Of a stretch of 32,000 nucleotides of DNA, positions 799 through 7,899 are shown piece by piece. This stretch comes from an uncultured bacterium. Lineage in GTDB: Bacteria; Patescibacteriota; Gracilibacteria; UBA1369; PNNO01. The stretch lies in NCBI GenBank assembly GCA_963704705.1, contig OY969931.1:960001-992000 (forward strand), read 5' to 3'. Numbering within the stretch: the stretch's first letter is position 1; the number at the start of each line of letters is the position of its first letter. The notes below the pieces were generated by a model. The model worked only from the letters and a program-made list of their open reading frames with translations, searched no databases and was not told where the DNA came from. The position numbers were made by a program, and so were the translations under genes.

Positions 799-2058
799 AT
801 GGTTGAATTATCTAGTGAATCGGATTTACAGGTATCCAATGATCTCGATGTTTCCTTCAGGGAAATATTTGATTTAGAACATACGTCAAGGGAACTCCGG
901 CAGGCAGTAATGGATGTTTTAACTGAATATCCTGAATACGGTTTTTATTTTTTTAATCAGGGAGCATTCAAGCAAAAAATCAGCTTTCTAAAAGAGCAAT
1001 TTCTTCCAGACACTGAAGCTGCCAAAGTTGCTTATGCTGTAAAAGCCAATCCCAGAACACGTATATTACAATTATTACAGGAATACGGTATTGATACTTT
1101 TGATTGTGCATCCCCTGGTGAAATAGAAAGTGTTTTAAGAGTAAATCCTAACGCAAAAATTCTTTATAATAATCCCAGAAAATTAAAAAGAGAAATAAAA
1201 GCAGCATCCAGAATGGGGGTAAGACATTACACTGCACATAATCAAAGGGGCGTTGATAAAATTTTAGAAAACGTAATTCCATACGATAGCGAATCCCCTA
1301 TTGAAATAGCTGTTAGAATGCAAACACTTAATGAGAATGCCGAAATTAATCTTTCTACTAAATTTGGTACAACACCTGATGAAGTAAGAAGAATAGTTCA
1401 ATATCTCGTATTTGAAGCTCAGGTTATTCCGGGAATTGCTGTAAATGCCGGTTCACAAAATAAAAATCCGGAAATATACAGAAAAATTATTTTACAAATT
1501 GCAGAAATAATTAAAGATATTCGGGAATTGTTAATCATTAATTTAGGTGGAGGATTTCCTGTAAATTATCATGAAAAAGATCAATTCGATTTGAGAAATT
1601 ATTTCAAAGTTATAAATCAGGTTACTCATGAAGTACTCCATAGTGTTATTAGTGATGAAAATGCTCAAATTATTATTGAACCAGGGAGATCTGTTATTGC
1701 TGATTCTGTTGATTTATTTGTTCCTGTAATAGAACGTGAAACTCGAGAAGGAAGGCCTTGTATTACTATAGCTGATGGAATATTTACTTCATTTAGTGAT
1801 TATGCAATACACGGATGGAAATATCCTTTCAGGCCGTTCTCAATAGAAGAAAAAACATTTACAGATAATAAAACCAATTTTACTGTATTTGGACAAACCT
1901 GCGATTCCGGAGACAAAATAAATTCTGTTGAATTACCAAATAATATAGATGAAGGTGATTATTTATGGGTACCAGGTGCTGGTGCATATTTAGATTCGCA
2001 AGCAAGTCAATTTAACGGCTTTTTACCTCACAGATATGTTTTTTATAATTCTAACTAA
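799..2058 (+). CDS. PLP-dependent decarboxylase of the Orn/Lys/Arg/DAP (fold-type III, ODC-like) family
   Basis: ATG start. Family motifs are all present: AYAVKANP (PLP lysine), GGGFPV (phosphate-binding Gly loop), EPGRSV, CDSGD (active-site Cys) and GAGAY...FNGF near the C-terminus, as in eukaryote-type ornithine/lysine decarboxylases. Substrate cannot be told from sequence alone. Confidence 0.85.
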   Translation: MVELSSESDLQVSNDLDVSFREIFDLEHTSRELRQAVMDVLTEYPEYGFYFFNQGAFKQKISFLKEQFLPDTEAAKVAYAVKANPRTRILQLLQEYGIDTFDCASPGEIESVLRVNPNAKILYNNPRKLKREIKAASRMGVRHYTAHNQRGVDKILENVIPYDSESPIEIAVRMQTLNENAEINLSTKFGTTPDEVRRIVQYLVFEAQVIPGIAVNAGSQNKNPEIYRKIILQIAEIIKDIRELLIINLGGGFPVNYHEKDQFDLRNYFKVINQVTHEVLHSVISDENAQIIIEPGRSVIADSVDLFVPVIERETREGRPCITIADGIFTSFSDYAIHGWKYPFRPFSIEEKTFTDNKTNFTVFGQTCDSGDKINSVELPNNIDEGDYLWVPGAGAYLDSQASQFNGFLPHRYVFYNSN

Positions 2059-2064
2059 ACAAAT

Positions 2065-3984
2065 ATGAATCCCGAAACTAGTAATATGCAAATCGTTGCA
2101 TATCCTGATATGTCAGAAATGCCAGAAGAAACATTGCAAAAACTTGCTGCAAAAGAGAGGGAATGGTTTGGATACGGCATGGAAGGAGCAGGGTTTGGAG
2201 AATATGCAATTTGTTCAAATCCTGAATGCAGAAGGATACTTTCTGTTGAAGATGCTTATCCTCAGGTTAATGAAGCAACTGGTAAATATATTCCATTAGC
2301 TGAGCTTGAGAAGGATGGAATTAATCTTCCATGCTGTCCGGATTGCAGTGGACCTATGGAACCGCTGCTTGATCCTGCTTTTTTCCCGGAATATTTAAGA
2401 TTATATTTCTCTCAAAAAGTGTATGGGGCGTTGCTAATGGATGGTGAAGAAGTTTTAGGATCAGTATCGGCATTTACTGCACCATTTGAAATGGCTTTTG
2501 AAGATAATATAAATTATAGAGAAGGTTATGATATAGATAATGTTATAGAAAGAATTTCTAAACTTACCAATAGAACTCCTGATGAAATTAGAAATCAGGT
2601 AGTTGTTTGTTGTAATAGAATCGCTATAGATCATAGTGCTCGTGGAAACAAATTAATTCCTGAACTAATTAACAAAACACTTAGTATTAATCCTGAAAAT
2701 GATGACTTGCCATTTATAGCTGACGTTAAACGCCCAGGCAATTTATATGGAATGTTCAATGCATATAGCGCTCATCCAATACAAGAAGATGAATTCAGAG
2801 GAAGTTTTATTTATGCAGAAGAAACTTCACAAATTAGAGAAGGAACTGGATTATCAAATGAAGAATTTGAAAAAAGATTAAAACAAATTGCTGAAAAAAT
2901 TAAAAGAAATCAACAAGAGAGACTTCAAGAAGAAGGTTTAAAACCTTTTCATGCAATTGGTGTGCCTTTATTAAGAGAGGTTTTTGGAAATCAAGGTGAA
3001 ATGCGCGGCAATACTTTATTTAATGTTTTCGAGAATCATGAAGGTAAAAAGTTTCAAGTTGAAGTATTTGACTCAGATACAGTTAATGAAGAAAAATTAA
3101 AACAATTTACTAATACTTTTAGACTTATTTTCAACAATAAATTTAGTGGTCAGTTTCTTGTTCATCCAAGTACAGTTAAACCAATTTCAGTAAAAGATGT
3201 ATTGAGCTTAAAAGCTGAACAATTACTAGAAATTTTTGATTTAAATCCAAAGGAGTTAGAAGAATTGTTAGAAGCATTAAAGGCAAATCCAAAACAATTA
3301 GTTGATTTAAATATTCTCGATAGATGTAATCCTGATAAATATCCAAAAAATCCTGGAACCCATGAATCAGCAGTGTTCTGGCATAATCCAGAAAAAGTGC
3401 TAGAAATATTTAAAGAAAAAGCAAAAAAAAATGCACACTTTGCTGTAATAAAGAGATTAGACATTGAAAAAGAAGTTGGGTCACCTGATACAGAATATGC
3501 AGGAATTATGTTTGGAAGAAAATGTACGATTCGTGAACTTTTTGAATCAGAAGAATGGGAAAATCCTATTTTATATTCTGGTATTAGAGTTCCTGAAAAT
3601 TTAAGAGATTTTGATGATTTTCTTAATAAATTAAATGAAAAATTAATTGCTAATGCTTATGAACCAGTTAATGAAGATAGTGAAGTATATGGATGGAACT
3701 GTATTGCGACACATCCTGATGTACGAGGATTAGAACATTTAATGAGATTAACTACAGCATTTTTTAATTCAATTCCTAAGAAAATGATAAATGAATTGAT
3801 GGTTATTGGTGAAACCCAGGTCTCATCAAGAGCACATCTACTTTTTCAAACAGCAGGTGGTCTTGATATAACAGGAGTGCTTACAGAATCTGATGAAGTT
3901 CAAAACGGAGATCCAGTTATTATTGTGGGACCATTAAAAAGAGCTTATAAAAACTTTGCAATTCCATTAGAAATGTTTGTATAA
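2065..3984 (+). CDS. Uncharacterised 639-aa protein: N-terminal Cys cluster (zinc-ribbon-like) plus two GNAT-like acyltransferase-type halves joined by a charged helical linker
   Basis: Long ORF starting 6 nt after the decarboxylase stop. Cys cluster C50-x4-C55 ... C90-C91-x2-C94. Two segments resemble GNAT motif A (beta4-alpha3): IAIDHSARGNKLIPELINKTL (about nt 2620) and CIATHPDVRGLEHLMRLTTAFF (about nt 3710-3775). The domain call is from motif resemblance only. Confidence 0.7.
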   Translation: MNPETSNMQIVAYPDMSEMPEETLQKLAAKEREWFGYGMEGAGFGEYAICSNPECRRILSVEDAYPQVNEATGKYIPLAELEKDGINLPCCPDCSGPMEPLLDPAFFPEYLRLYFSQKVYGALLMDGEEVLGSVSAFTAPFEMAFEDNINYREGYDIDNVIERISKLTNRTPDEIRNQVVVCCNRIAIDHSARGNKLIPELINKTLSINPENDDLPFIADVKRPGNLYGMFNAYSAHPIQEDEFRGSFIYAEETSQIREGTGLSNEEFEKRLKQIAEKIKRNQQERLQEEGLKPFHAIGVPLLREVFGNQGEMRGNTLFNVFENHEGKKFQVEVFDSDTVNEEKLKQFTNTFRLIFNNKFSGQFLVHPSTVKPISVKDVLSLKAEQLLEIFDLNPKELEELLEALKANPKQLVDLNILDRCNPDKYPKNPGTHESAVFWHNPEKVLEIFKEKAKKNAHFAVIKRLDIEKEVGSPDTEYAGIMFGRKCTIRELFESEEWENPILYSGIRVPENLRDFDDFLNKLNEKLIANAYEPVNEDSEVYGWNCIATHPDVRGLEHLMRLTTAFFNSIPKKMINELMVIGETQVSSRAHLLFQTAGGLDITGVLTESDEVQNGDPVIIVGPLKRAYKNFAIPLEMFV

Positions 3985-4014: not shown

Positions 4015-6135
4015 ATGGATGCTTATCTTTCAATAATTTATATTTTCTGTGCGTTCTTGAGCATAACTCTCGGTGTTGCTGCATTTCTGTTTAATAAAAA
4101 GATGAAAAGTAACCAAGCATTTTTTCTATTCTCGGTTAGTACTGGTTTATGGATACTTTCACTTTTCTTTTTATACTATTCAGTTAATCCATATATTGAA
4201 TTATTATCTTTAATTTCAGTAAAACTTGCATATGGATTTTCTTTGTTAATGACGTTTTCATTTACTATATTTATGTATTATTTCCCGAAAAAAACTATTA
4301 AGTTTTCTAGATACATAATCAATTCTTATATAGCGATTAATTTATTATTAATTGCTATAACAGTGTTCACTCCTTTAATTCACAGAGAACAAATTATTAT
4401 TAATGGACTGTATAGTGCCGACAAATTAGGTCCACTTTATTTTCTTTATATATTATTTATAGTAATAAATTTTTCAGTTTCAATGTTGATAGCAATTCAC
4501 AAAGCTATAAGCTTATCAGGTATTGCAAAAAAGAAATTAAATATAGTTTTGTTCGCATTTGGAACCTTCGGAGTGATTGCAATTTTAATAAATGTAATTC
4601 TTCCAGCTTTTAAAATCTATTTCTTTCTAAATAAAACTGCAGTTTTAACATTATTTTTTCTTATCCCAGCTTTTTATTCAATACATAAGCATAGATTCTT
4701 TAATATTTCTTATATAGCTCTAGAATCATTAAGATTATTCATACTTTTAAGCGTATATATTGTTACAATTATATCTATATATTATTTTTTCATATATTTA
4801 ATTCCAGATTTTAATGATTTAATGGCGCTAATACTTAGTATTTTAGCTGGTTTATATTTATGGAATAAAATGCAAATATATATTCCACAACTAATAATTG
4901 GAGATTTTACAAAATCTAAAAAAATACTTTCAAAACTTCAGGCATCAATAAATACATGTTCAACATACAGTGAATTAGAATCTCTTTTAGAAAAATATTT
5001 CGTTTTAGATCAAAATATCACATCAATCAGTCTATACTTTGTTAGAAGCAATAAGTTAAATATAAATATTCCTATTTATGTTCAAAATAATTTTACAAAA
5101 CTAATTAGTTCTTTACCTAATAAAATATATGTTAAAGAAGAAATCAGATATTTGAAGCTTTCGAAGAAAGAAAGCAAACTAATAATACAAAAATTTGAAG
5201 CTTTCGATGCATCAATTATAATGCCACTTTTTGCAGAACATAAATTAATTGGATTTTTAATACTTGGCAGCAAAGAAAAGAACAAACTTTATACTCATGA
5301 AGAAATTAATCAAATACTCAAAATCAAACCGCAATTAGAAATAGCATTAACAAATTTTCTTCTTAAATTAAATCTTCAGGAAGAAAATAATATGATGAAA
5401 GAATTGATTGAGAAAAAAACTCATAAATTACAGGAACAATTTAAGGAAATTAAAAAACTGCTTGAACAACAATCTGATTTTATAGCTGTAACAGCACATG
5501 AATTCAGAACGCCTTTAAGTATTGCCATGTTTCAACTGGAAGACACACTAACTACGCATGAACATACTCCCCAGGTAATTAAAGATATGGAAGTAATGGC
5601 TGATTCTTTAAACAATCTTAAAAACCTTACTCAAAAACTTTTTGATGTACAGCAATATGATCTTAATAAAATTAAATTAAATAAAAAACAAATCAATTTA
5701 TACGATTATTTATTACTTATTTTTAATGAATTTAAATTAATTATGAAAGAAAATAAAACGGAATTTATTTTTAATTATAATTTGAATAAAAATTTAGAAA
5801 TTGAAATTGATGAACACCAAATAAGACAAATTTTTGCCAATTTACTTAATAATGCAGCTAAGTTTGCAGATAAATCAAATCCGGAAATTAAAATAGAAGC
5901 TAATGGTGAAAATAATAAAATTCAAATATCTATAATTGATAATGGTCAGGGAATTTCAGATAAAGATAAAGTAAGAGTATTTGAAAAATTCCAGACAACC
6001 AAAGTTACAATGGGTACTGGCATTGGTTTAGGTTTATATATATGCAAAAAAATTATTGAACTTCATAATGGAAAAATATGGATTGAAGACAATAAACCAA
6101 AAGGAGCTAAATTCATTTTTGAATTAAGAAAATAA
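4015..6135 (+). CDS. Membrane sensor histidine kinase (polytopic N-terminal sensor, GAF-like domain, HisKA, HATPase_c)
   Basis: About 9-10 hydrophobic segments in the first 290 aa. GAF-like end IIMPLFAEHKLIGFLILGSKE. Coiled linker. H-box VTAHEFRTPLS. N-box ANLLNNAAKF. DNGQGI (G1). GTGIGLGL (G2). Confidence 0.9.
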   Translation: MDAYLSIIYIFCAFLSITLGVAAFLFNKKMKSNQAFFLFSVSTGLWILSLFFLYYSVNPYIELLSLISVKLAYGFSLLMTFSFTIFMYYFPKKTIKFSRYIINSYIAINLLLIAITVFTPLIHREQIIINGLYSADKLGPLYFLYILFIVINFSVSMLIAIHKAISLSGIAKKKLNIVLFAFGTFGVIAILINVILPAFKIYFFLNKTAVLTLFFLIPAFYSIHKHRFFNISYIALESLRLFILLSVYIVTIISIYYFFIYLIPDFNDLMALILSILAGLYLWNKMQIYIPQLIIGDFTKSKKILSKLQASINTCSTYSELESLLEKYFVLDQNITSISLYFVRSNKLNINIPIYVQNNFTKLISSLPNKIYVKEEIRYLKLSKKESKLIIQKFEAFDASIIMPLFAEHKLIGFLILGSKEKNKLYTHEEINQILKIKPQLEIALTNFLLKLNLQEENNMMKELIEKKTHKLQEQFKEIKKLLEQQSDFIAVTAHEFRTPLSIAMFQLEDTLTTHEHTPQVIKDMEVMADSLNNLKNLTQKLFDVQQYDLNKIKLNKKQINLYDYLLLIFNEFKLIMKENKTEFIFNYNLNKNLEIEIDEHQIRQIFANLLNNAAKFADKSNPEIKIEANGENNKIQISIIDNGQGISDKDKVRVFEKFQTTKVTMGTGIGLGLYICKKIIELHNGKIWIEDNKPKGAKFIFELRK

Positions 6136-6492
6136 CTTTTTAACGTATTCAACCAATACTTTAGGTGGAGTATTAAGTTTTATAAGGTAATCATCAACAC
6201 CTGCTTGTTTTGCATCTTCCTGAATTTGTTGATTGCTGTAATTTGAAAGCATGACAATTTTAACTCCGGGCAGCACCTTTTTTATTCTTGGGATAAAATC
6301 TAGGCCCGCTTCTTCTTCGCCTCTTATTCCATGATCTAAAAGTGCAAGATCAGGTTTAAATTTACTTAAAAGTTTAGAAGCCTCATCAACACTTACTGCA
6401 CATTTAACATTAAAGCCTGCTGCTTCAAGATTTTTCTTGTATATATTTGCCAAAATCGGTTCGTCTTCTAAAATTAAAATGTTTTTTTCCAT
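6124..6492 (-). CDS. Single-domain response regulator (receiver only, CheY/Spo0F-like)
   Basis: 122 aa. ILILEDEP acidic pocket, phospho-acceptor context LALLDHGI, MLSN and conserved K (DYLIKL). No output domain. The 3' end overlaps the kinase 3' end by 12 nt (convergent). Confidence 0.9.
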   Translation of the reverse strand: MEKNILILEDEPILANIYKKNLEAAGFNVKCAVSVDEASKLLSKFKPDLALLDHGIRGEEEAGLDFIPRIKKVLPGVKIVMLSNYSNQQIQEDAKQAGVDDYLIKLNTPPKVLVEYVKKLFS

Positions 6493-6538: not shown

Positions 6539-7222
6539 TTATTTTTGCAAAATATAGCCTTCTCCTCTTTTTGTTTTTAACCAATTAGCACAATAAGGTT
6601 CCAATTCGTCTCTAAGACTTTGAATATTTGATCTTAAATTACGATTTTTTCTTATTCCTGGATAATCACCCCAAAATTTTTCCTTTACATAAGCCGCTGG
6701 AAGCAATTCCTCGGGGTTAACCAAAAATAATCTTAATAAAAATTTATTCTTTTTTGTTAAATTTATAGGTTTATTATTAAAGTAAAATTGGTTTGTGTGA
6801 AAATCATATGACAATTCTTTATATTTCAAAATTCTTTTTAATGAAAAATCTTCAGATAACTGCATCCATCTTTCGATTCGCAATTCCAGCTCTTTAGAAT
6901 TAAATGGCTTTCTTATATAATCATTTGCACCTAATTTGAATGCTTTTTCCAAATATGAAATCGAAGTAACACTTGTTAAAATTATTATTGGTATTTTTTT
7001 ATTTTTTTCTCTTATCTTAGCGCATAAATCAAGCCCTGTAAGGCTGTCTTTACCAAGAAAAATATCTAAAAGCAACAAATCAAATACATCAGAATAAATC
7101 TTATCAAAAGCCTGATTAAAATCATGAGCAACATCAACAATATTAATCAGTTTATTTGCTGATAGAATTTTTTTTATAGATTGAGCTACCTGTATGTTAT
7201 CTTCTACTACTAAAACATTCAT
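6539..7222 (-). CDS. OmpR/PhoB-family response regulator (receiver plus winged-helix DNA-binding domain)
   Basis: MNVLVVEDN..., DLLLLDIFL (acceptor Asp), ILTS, DYIRKPF. C-terminal trans_reg_C-like LTKKNKFLLRLFLVNPEELL ... RGEGYIL. Confidence 0.9.
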   Translation of the reverse strand: MNVLVVEDNIQVAQSIKKILSANKLINIVDVAHDFNQAFDKIYSDVFDLLLLDIFLGKDSLTGLDLCAKIREKNKKIPIIILTSVTSISYLEKAFKLGANDYIRKPFNSKELELRIERWMQLSEDFSLKRILKYKELSYDFHTNQFYFNNKPINLTKKNKFLLRLFLVNPEELLPAAYVKEKFWGDYPGIRKNRNLRSNIQSLRDELEPYCANWLKTKRGEGYILQK

Positions 7223-7314: not shown

Positions 7315-7899
7315 ATGAATCAATTAAATGAAAAAGATATAATCAGGCATTACTTATTAAACTTATTAACCATACTTAATATTGAATTATCAAATTTCAA
7401 TATTAAGCGAGCAGATAAAAGAAAAATTGATGATTTAATTGGTGTCGCAAGTATACTAATTGCAAATGAGAATATATTTTTAAATGAAAAATCATCATTA
7501 TTTATTCAGGATGTTCATTTAAAGGACCTTATTGAGCTAAATTGCGAAATTTTAAAATCAGAAATACAAAAGAAAAAAATTTCCATCAATTTGCCACAAG
7601 ATGATTTGATAATTAAAGTTGATAAATTCTATTTTAGCGAAGCATTAAAATATTTATTAAAAGAATTAATTAAAGATAATACTAAAATTTCTTTTGGAAT
7701 TAATAAAACAGATAACAAACTCGAGATTATTCATGAAAGAAAAACCGAATTACCTCAACCAGCAGATAAAATCATCGATTTATTAAAAACAAAAAACTTC
7801 CAAAAAGATGATATTACTTTTCAATTAGCATGCACTATTATCAAAATACATAATATAAAATTAAGCCTGAAAAATAATTGTATTATTATGTCTTTTTAA
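7315..7899 (+). CDS. Degenerate histidine-kinase-like protein (DHp-like helix with His, CA-like domain lacking G-boxes); possible Spo0B-type phosphotransferase
   Basis: 194 aa, no TM segment. N-terminal IIRHYLLNLLTIL resembles an H-box helix. ALKYLLKELIKDN resembles an N-box. No DxGxG or GxGxG ATP-lid motifs are present. Divergently placed next to the two regulators. Confidence 0.55.
   Translation: MNQLNEKDIIRHYLLNLLTILNIELSNFNIKRADKRKIDDLIGVASILIANENIFLNEKSSLFIQDVHLKDLIELNCEILKSEIQKKKISINLPQDDLIIKVDKFYFSEALKYLLKELIKDNTKISFGINKTDNKLEIIHERKTELPQPADKIIDLLKTKNFQKDDITFQLACTIIKIHNIKLSLKNNCIIMSF

Follow-up and report, generated by a model that had tools for sequence, protein, structure and literature searches.

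The window analysed here is a stretch of 32,000 nucleotides (nt) from the genome of an uncultured bacterium of the class Gracilibacteria (assembly GCA_963704705.1, contig OY969931.1, positions 960,001 to 992,000). In the labelling used below, the host genome is G000 and the window corresponds to G000:C1:960001-992000, whereas L-, G- and P-labels denote the loci, genomes and proteins with which it was compared. Side by side on the same strand, the window carries the genes for a pyridoxal phosphate (PLP)-dependent decarboxylase (DEC), for a protein of 639 residues (X) and for a sensor histidine kinase with a hydrophobic N-terminal part (HK7TM; Table 1). We tentatively propose that DEC and X form the synthase part of a cassette consisting of a signal synthase and a receptor kinase, and that the pair makes an N-acylated diamine sensed by HK7TM. 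DEC would form a diamine by decarboxylating a basic amino acid, for which ornithine and lysine are the most likely candidates, and X would N-acylate this diamine, most likely with acetyl- or acyl-CoA. The modified amine would be sensed by HK7TM, which is encoded 30 nt downstream of X and would signal via the adjacent stand-alone receiver, a conserved protein of 194 residues (p194) and an OmpR-type regulator. We infer the substrate, the acyl donor and the product, and with them the two enzymatic steps, from folds, motifs, gene fusions and gene replacement; the sensing of the product by the kinase is deduced from conserved adjacency and analogy.

DEC scored above the gathering thresholds of two Pfam domains, Orn_Arg_deC_N (PF02784; E value 2.5e-34, 119.2 bits versus a cut-off of 23.4) and Orn_DAP_Arg_deC (PF00278; 6.6e-10, 39.6 bits versus 23). 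When the sequences in the PDB were searched, the closest solved structures were the lysine/ornithine decarboxylases of Selenomonas ruminantium and Vibrio vulnificus (5gjm, 4e-31, and 2plj, 2e-25), followed by eukaryotic and viral ornithine/arginine decarboxylases, with diaminopimelate (DAP) decarboxylases at 3e-15 or weaker. Despite only ∼25-30% identity with 5gjm and 2plj, the motifs AVK82AN (containing the PLP lysine), GGGFPV, EPGR, D326GIFTSF, C368-D369-SGD and GAY of DEC align with theirs. K82, D102, R173, GGG250-252, E294, R297, C368 and D372 are invariant in all 16 cassette orthologs of DEC; D326 (13/16) and D369 (14/16) are less strictly conserved. The latter two, which we take to be equivalent to D332 and D361 of ornithine decarboxylase (ODC), the aspartate residues that bind the distal amine, fit a basic amino acid as the substrate. 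In 201 genomes of the class, 17 strong matches to DEC were found, all of them at cassette positions, and the next ODC-fold proteins matched at 1e-29 or weaker. Judged by these matches, and in contrast to 5gjm and 2plj, DEC is a member of a subfamily confined to the cassette.

The probability that DEC is instead LysA, the DAP decarboxylase of ordinary lysine synthesis, is close to nil. The best NCBIfam model for DEC is indeed that of lysA (TIGR01048), but its score of 139.5 bits is far below the equivalog cut-off of 297.9. DAP decarboxylases in the PDB reached at most 59 bits with DEC as the query, as compared with 111 bits for lysine/ornithine decarboxylases, and DEC carries the ODC-type motifs DGIFTSF and CDSGD, not the signatures typical of DAP decarboxylases. 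Furthermore, neither DapF nor dihydrodipicolinate synthase (DHDPS) was found in G000, which is 99% complete, whereas control genomes have both. The low lysA score and the lack of these two enzymes, together with the ranking of the PDB matches, exclude an ordinary LysA role for DEC, in agreement with the ornithine/lysine type initially assigned to it.

X matched no sequence in the PDB and no model of Pfam or NCBIfam at E ≤ 0.1, GNAT models included, which bears out the initial view that it cannot be assigned to a characterised family. In a set of 5.8 billion clustered proteins only eight close homologs were found; when 1.84 billion representatives were searched exhaustively with phmmer, 177 relatives were obtained, and a word-index homolog search with the profile of the X module yielded 4 proteins. 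Nothing was found when genome contigs were searched for related loci with the alignment of the eight homologs. The AlphaFold model of full-length X (based on the eight-sequence alignment; pLDDT 79) consists of two α/β modules, joined by the charged linker that had been expected between the two halves, and the GNAT order of β1-α1-α2-β2-4-α3-β5-α4-β6 fits both of them. The best PDB fold match of the full-length model is the tandem-GNAT transacylase SidF (7qf6), which aligns over 571 columns with an E value of 1.3e-5; numerous single GNATs come next. When the C-module was folded alone (model m1a55d965f792; pLDDT 84, pTM 0.81), the best 50 Foldseek matches were all GNAT acyltransferases (E values from 2e-5, probability near 1.0). 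They comprised the GNAT domain of TmcA/NAT10 as well as arylalkylamine, dopamine, polyamine and agmatine N-acetyltransferases, with TM-scores to the target of 0.43-0.59. Structure prediction, which had been suggested as a check, thus supports the tandem GNAT folds proposed in the initial annotation. A profile of the C-type module matches the N-modules of X proteins at E values of 1e-14 to 1e-21, which indicates an internal duplication; according to the models, X consists of two homologous modules in tandem, both with the GNAT fold. The C-type module also occurs in stand-alone proteins of ∼300 residues.

The two strand-helix segments that had been likened to GNAT motif A coincide with the predicted β4 and α3 of each module (strands 179-188 and 540-549, helices 197-206 and 556-568). 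The canonical pyrophosphate loop of motif A, Q/R-x-x-G-x-G/A, follows β4; the consensus of the X family at this place is canonical (P..RG.G), and most orthologs have RGxG. The N-terminal cysteine cluster recognized earlier (CSNPEC…CCPDC) also proved to be conserved. Cys50, Cys55, Cys91 and Cys94 are invariant in all eight close homologs and are located within the insertion between α1 and α2, presumably the acceptor side, as in other GNATs. Across 34 modules the four cysteines are present in a nearly all-or-none fashion (four in 17 modules, three in 4, none in 13), which fits a structural zinc site, and the cluster is considered a putative zinc ribbon. The other fold initially considered for X, a FemX-type or aminoacyl-tRNA-dependent transferase, was not supported: no such structure is among the 50 best fold matches listed, and RGxG, the loop of CoA-type enzymes, is present in the family.

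Coupling of the decarboxylase to X is not restricted to the window, as an analysis of the neighborhoods of X homologs, also suggested beforehand, demonstrated. G000 contains a second DEC-X pair (G000:C1:21519-24591, minus strand; L004 7520-10591) in the same order and with the same 6-nt gap, which shares 47% (DEC) and 37% (X) identity with the pair in the window. Its flanks consist of a divergent protein of 2010 residues with a weakly C1q-like C-terminus and two small open reading frames (ORFs) without family. At 16 of 30 X loci an ODC-fold ortholog of DEC lies directly upstream of X (with 32-42% identity in other families of the class), irrespective of whether X has two modules, a single module or a fused SET domain. 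Single DEC-X polypeptides are also encoded (P0023, 662 residues; L053 in G009, 773 residues). At three loci devoid of an ODC-fold gene, a pyruvoyl decarboxylase of the AdoMet_dc family is either fused to X (L032) or adjoins it (L044, L045), as if the enzyme for the amine-forming step had been replaced by a non-orthologous one. In L025 (G036:C14, 3654-8852), four ORFs are located between DEC and X, and the one directly upstream of X has a phage-associated BRO-N domain, which suggests that this cassette was split by a mobile insertion.

Ordinary polyamine metabolism, in which an ornithine or lysine decarboxylase supplies putrescine or cadaverine and a SpeG/SSAT-like acetyltransferase neutralizes the excess, would be compatible with the type of DEC and with the presence of polyamine, agmatine and spermine N-acetyltransferases among the fold matches of X. 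Several observations make this explanation improbable. Duplication of the pair, the linkage at 16 of 30 loci, the fusions, the replacement by AdoMet_dc, the restriction of DEC to the cassette and the missing polyamine genes, taken together, argue against housekeeping polyamine supply. The X family is patchily distributed (22 of the 201 genomes of the class) and, among ∼40 genomes of G000's own order, was found in G000 only, and the pair is restricted to the cassette with the kinase. Spermidine synthase and S-adenosylmethionine decarboxylase (AdoMetDC) were not found in G000, although MetK is present, leaving no onward polyamine pathway; and X, as stated above, matches no SpeG or other GNAT model of Pfam.

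HK7TM has 8-9 hydrophobic segments within residues 1-277, connected by short loops, followed by a cytoplasmic region without assigned domain, HisKA and HATPase_c; DEC and X contain no hydrophobic segments. The 33 HK7TM genes examined, which derive from the class and from metagenome contigs of near relatives, represent at least 13 families, and for 29 of these genes X is encoded directly upstream or, in L044, one gene away. Of the other four, three (L046, L047 and L049) have a different upstream gene and one lies at the edge of its contig. The HK7TM-X loci are unlike each other in the genes that surround the cassette. The adjacency of X and HK7TM is the strongest association of the cassette and is tighter than that of X and DEC. 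The stand-alone receiver, p194 and the OmpR-type regulator usually accompany HK7TM, including at many distant loci. Initially, a link of the pair to two-component signaling had been proposed on account of both flanking kinases. For the downstream kinase this link is stronger than had been suggested, but the upstream kinase is not a conserved partner; L005 has it, whereas L008 and most distant loci lack it. Searching G000 with the kinases of the window (tblastn) revealed three histidine kinases in all, two of which are at this locus; it has one HK7TM and one p194. In L051 (G128:C5, 6043-8128) two ORFs that overlap, of 350 and 348 residues, make up the HK7TM ortholog; a frameshift, decay to a pseudogene or a mistake in the assembly could account for this.

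The closeness of X to the kinase would also be expected if X were a protein acetyltransferase or an accessory factor acting on the kinase or the regulators by modification or binding, with DEC only loosely associated. X modules fused to SET domains (L023, L024, L028, P0021 and P0057) point in the same direction, as SET domains are known for methylation of protein lysine residues. This explanation is improbable all the same, since the DEC-X fusions and the unrelated decarboxylase folds that take the place of DEC indicate that the amine-forming step belongs to the unit. Moreover, cassette-type DEC occurs nowhere else in the genomes of the class, and the best fold matches of X include N-acetyltransferases acting on small amines.

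Outside the class, the profile of the X module found no match in ∼380 other sampled genomes of the phylum, and the HK7TM sensor family was present in 94 of 401 genomes sampled across the phylum. The position directly upstream of HK7TM is occupied in L070 by an HDC-type pyruvoyl decarboxylase together with a zinc-ribbon protein of weak, but architecturally consistent, similarity to X, in L071 by an ODC-fold decarboxylase together with a GNAT protein, and in L078 by an AdoMet_dc protein together with a protein without family. Synthases of the LuxI/FeeM/Acetyltransf_5 type precede HK7TM in L075, L082, L083, L084 and L089, in four of these five with ThiF. Aminotransferase class I/II-fold enzymes do so in L072, L073, L076 and L079; they were confirmed by Pfam in the first three, and in L079 the assignment is derived from matching gene sizes. 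In L076 an AMP-binding, acyl-activating enzyme is encoded upstream of the aminotransferase-fold enzyme, and L079 has an ORF of equal size in the matching position. Methyltransferases of the amine or class-I type, finally, are located upstream of HK7TM in L073 (at a second kinase), L074, L083 and L085, that of L085 belonging to the NNMT/PNMT family. Read from domain matches and gene order, the arrangement is that of one receptor-kinase family behind interchangeable small-molecule enzymes. Some genomes, for example G036 and G037, have at least two cassettes with different enzymes. Cassette genes in G043, G125, G059 and G109 contain 9-28 in-frame TGA codons, indicating that the cassette is also present in lineages of the class that have reassigned TGA.

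These partners also bear on the possibility that the enzymes make a metabolite or an envelope component (an N-acyl amine, an aminolipid-like constituent or a compatible solute), while HK7TM monitors the membrane or envelope for homeostatic control. The sensor part of HK7TM is almost wholly embedded in the membrane, with short loops, and its partners outside the class include Acetyltransf_5/FeeM-type enzymes, known relatives of which make N-acyl amino-acid lipids; gene order is as compatible with co-regulation as with signaling. However, the chemistry encoded upstream of HK7TM varies widely, from three decarboxylase folds to methyltransferases, ThiF and aminotransferase-fold enzymes, a range that diversifying signals would explain more readily than one envelope component would. 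The occurrence of two or more cassettes with different enzymes within one genome also disfavors such a role, which we consider unlikely, albeit deserving of attention.

Some observations weigh against the proposal that DEC and X synthesize a signal for HK7TM. The initial annotation had attributed to DEC every catalytic motif of ornithine and lysine decarboxylases; the motifs listed above do align, but the PLP-stacking histidine (FHVGSQ in 5gjm) is replaced by Asn216 in DEC of the window. At this position, 10 of the 16 cassette orthologs have histidine and 6 have asparagine, and the paralog within G000 has histidine. Likewise, the motif-A loops of X in the window, RGNK and RGLE, are non-canonical. 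No kinase is encoded beside the second DEC-X pair of G000, and at 9 of the 30 X loci the flanks retrieved contain no decarboxylase. Because clusters on the tree of the kinase match taxonomic families, co-evolution cannot be separated from taxonomy, and, as the loci within the class stem from related genomes, part of their conserved synteny is inherited. Finally, a membrane kinase encoded beside a pair of enzymes could equally regulate this pair.

A synthase gene beside the gene for its receptor kinase is a known arrangement, exemplified by CqsA-CqsS and LuxM-LuxN; the GNAT family and the chemistry would be new. In these systems, as in the proposed cassette, a small-molecule synthase is encoded side by side with a histidine kinase that spans the membrane several times and feeds into a phosphorelay. 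CqsA, which synthesizes CAI-1, uses PLP and has the aminotransferase class I/II fold; at L072, L073 and L076, in other classes of the phylum, a member of its Pfam family is encoded ahead of HK7TM. No sequence relationship was found between CqsA or LuxM and DEC or X, and here the synthase would be a decarboxylase plus a tandem GNAT, with sensing of the product by the kinase presumed. LuxI-type N-acyl homoserine lactone synthases and FeeM-type N-acyl amino acid synthases are related to GNATs and hold the position of X upstream of HK7TM in other classes, whereas X looks like a classical CoA-type GNAT. A LuxI- or FeeM-type identity of X was rejected, as it matches neither PF00765 nor PF21926, and LasI, EsaI and FeeM are not among its best 50 fold matches.

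SidF, an N5-hydroxyornithine transacylase, resembles X in having two GNAT domains in one chain and in acting on an ornithine-derived amine, as X may do. It differs in that no sequence similarity was detected, that X has the Cys4 ribbon and large inserts, and that no genes for a monooxygenase or a siderophore synthetase are near X. The N-acetyltransferases of small amines (4fd4, 6k80, 5k9n and 7ciu), which depend on acetyl-CoA, are among the best fold matches of the C-module (probability 1.0), but identity is 10-14%, X has an insert of ∼100 residues between α1 and α2, and the fold leaves the substrate unfixed. MccE of the microcin C pathway combines a PLP decarboxylase domain and a GNAT domain in one chain and in this respect is like the decarboxylase-GNAT polypeptides P0023 and L053. 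An MccE-like microcin module was rejected: when a fused relative was compared with 72,556 plasmids (tblastn), matches were obtained via the decarboxylase half only, and no two-domain protein was found. There are no MccA-, MccB- or MccC-like genes in the window.

The features of the locus are compiled in Table 1. G000 is a single contig of 1.37 Mb with ∼30% G+C. The four consecutive ORFs from the upstream kinase to HK7TM have the coordinates and the common strand given initially and are separated by 39, 6 and 30 nt; a sequence scan found no terminator-like site between these genes, and a promoter scan gave fewer promoter-like matches in the real than in shuffled sequence. p194 matched no Pfam family. 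In L005 a permease of the AI-2E-transporter family (PF01594; 3436-4449) is encoded just upstream of regulator, kinase, DEC and X, and in G000 an ORF of equal size (367 residues) is found at the matching position (L042 7527-8630, minus strand); the product of the ORF at this position could be an exporter.

Table 1. Features of the DEC-X-HK7TM locus (positions in the window).
Feature	Position	Strand	Basis or remark
C-terminal part of a histidine kinase of 410 residues	1-759	+	Pfam: HisKA (weak), HATPase_c; full gene L042 9527-10759
DEC, fold-type III PLP decarboxylase of the ornithine/lysine type, 419 residues	799-2058	+	Pfam, PDB alignment
X, 639 residues	2065-3984	+	
X N-module (residues 1-267), predicted GNAT fold with Cys4 ribbon between α1 and α2	2065-2865	+	AlphaFold model, hidden Markov model
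Cys4 cluster C50, C55, C91, C94 (CSNPEC…CCPDC), putative structural zinc ribbon	2212-2346	+	
N-module β4/motif-A region NRIAIDHSARGNKLIP; RGxG in orthologs	2614-2661	+	Module alignment
Charged helical linker (helix 273-290), then low-confidence stretch (301-319)	2881-3021	+	AlphaFold model
X C-module (residues 320-639), predicted GNAT fold, helical insert in place of the zinc ribbon	3022-3981	+	AlphaFold model, Foldseek
C-module β4/motif-A region NCIATHPDVRGLEHLM; family consensus WNC....P..RG.G	3697-3744	+	
HK7TM, sensor kinase of 706 residues, conserved downstream partner of X	4015-6135	+	HisKA, HATPase_c, hydrophobic segments
Stand-alone receiver, 122 residues, convergent with HK7TM and overlapping the 3′ end of the kinase gene; frequent cassette member	6124-6492	-	
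OmpR-type response regulator, 227 residues, frequent cassette member	6539-7222	-	
p194, conserved protein of 194 residues; alongside the cassette in at least 12 loci	7315-7899	+	

No description of the X family or of the cassette was found in the literature. X represents a GNAT family without earlier description, characterized by a zinc-ribbon insertion, tandem duplication and fusions to SET, methyltransferase or decarboxylase domains. Members of the candidate phyla radiation (CPR)/Patescibacteria are ultra-small episymbionts, for the most part uncultured, whose genomes encode very few regulators. It is conceivable, if somewhat doubtful, that a diffusible N-acylated diamine detected by HK7TM is one dialect of a phylum-wide, modular system of cell-cell (or symbiont-host) signaling in these organisms, in which one kinase family would be combined with interchangeable synthases, i.e., three decarboxylase folds, GNAT/LuxI/FeeM acyltransferases, methyltransferases and aminotransferase-fold enzymes. 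If confirmed, a conserved cassette in which a dedicated pair of amine-forming and amine-acylating enzymes is coupled to the main membrane sensor kinase would be the first native small-molecule signaling system defined in CPR/Patescibacteria, and communication with hosts or kin might then be studied, or cultivation attempted, by chemical means.

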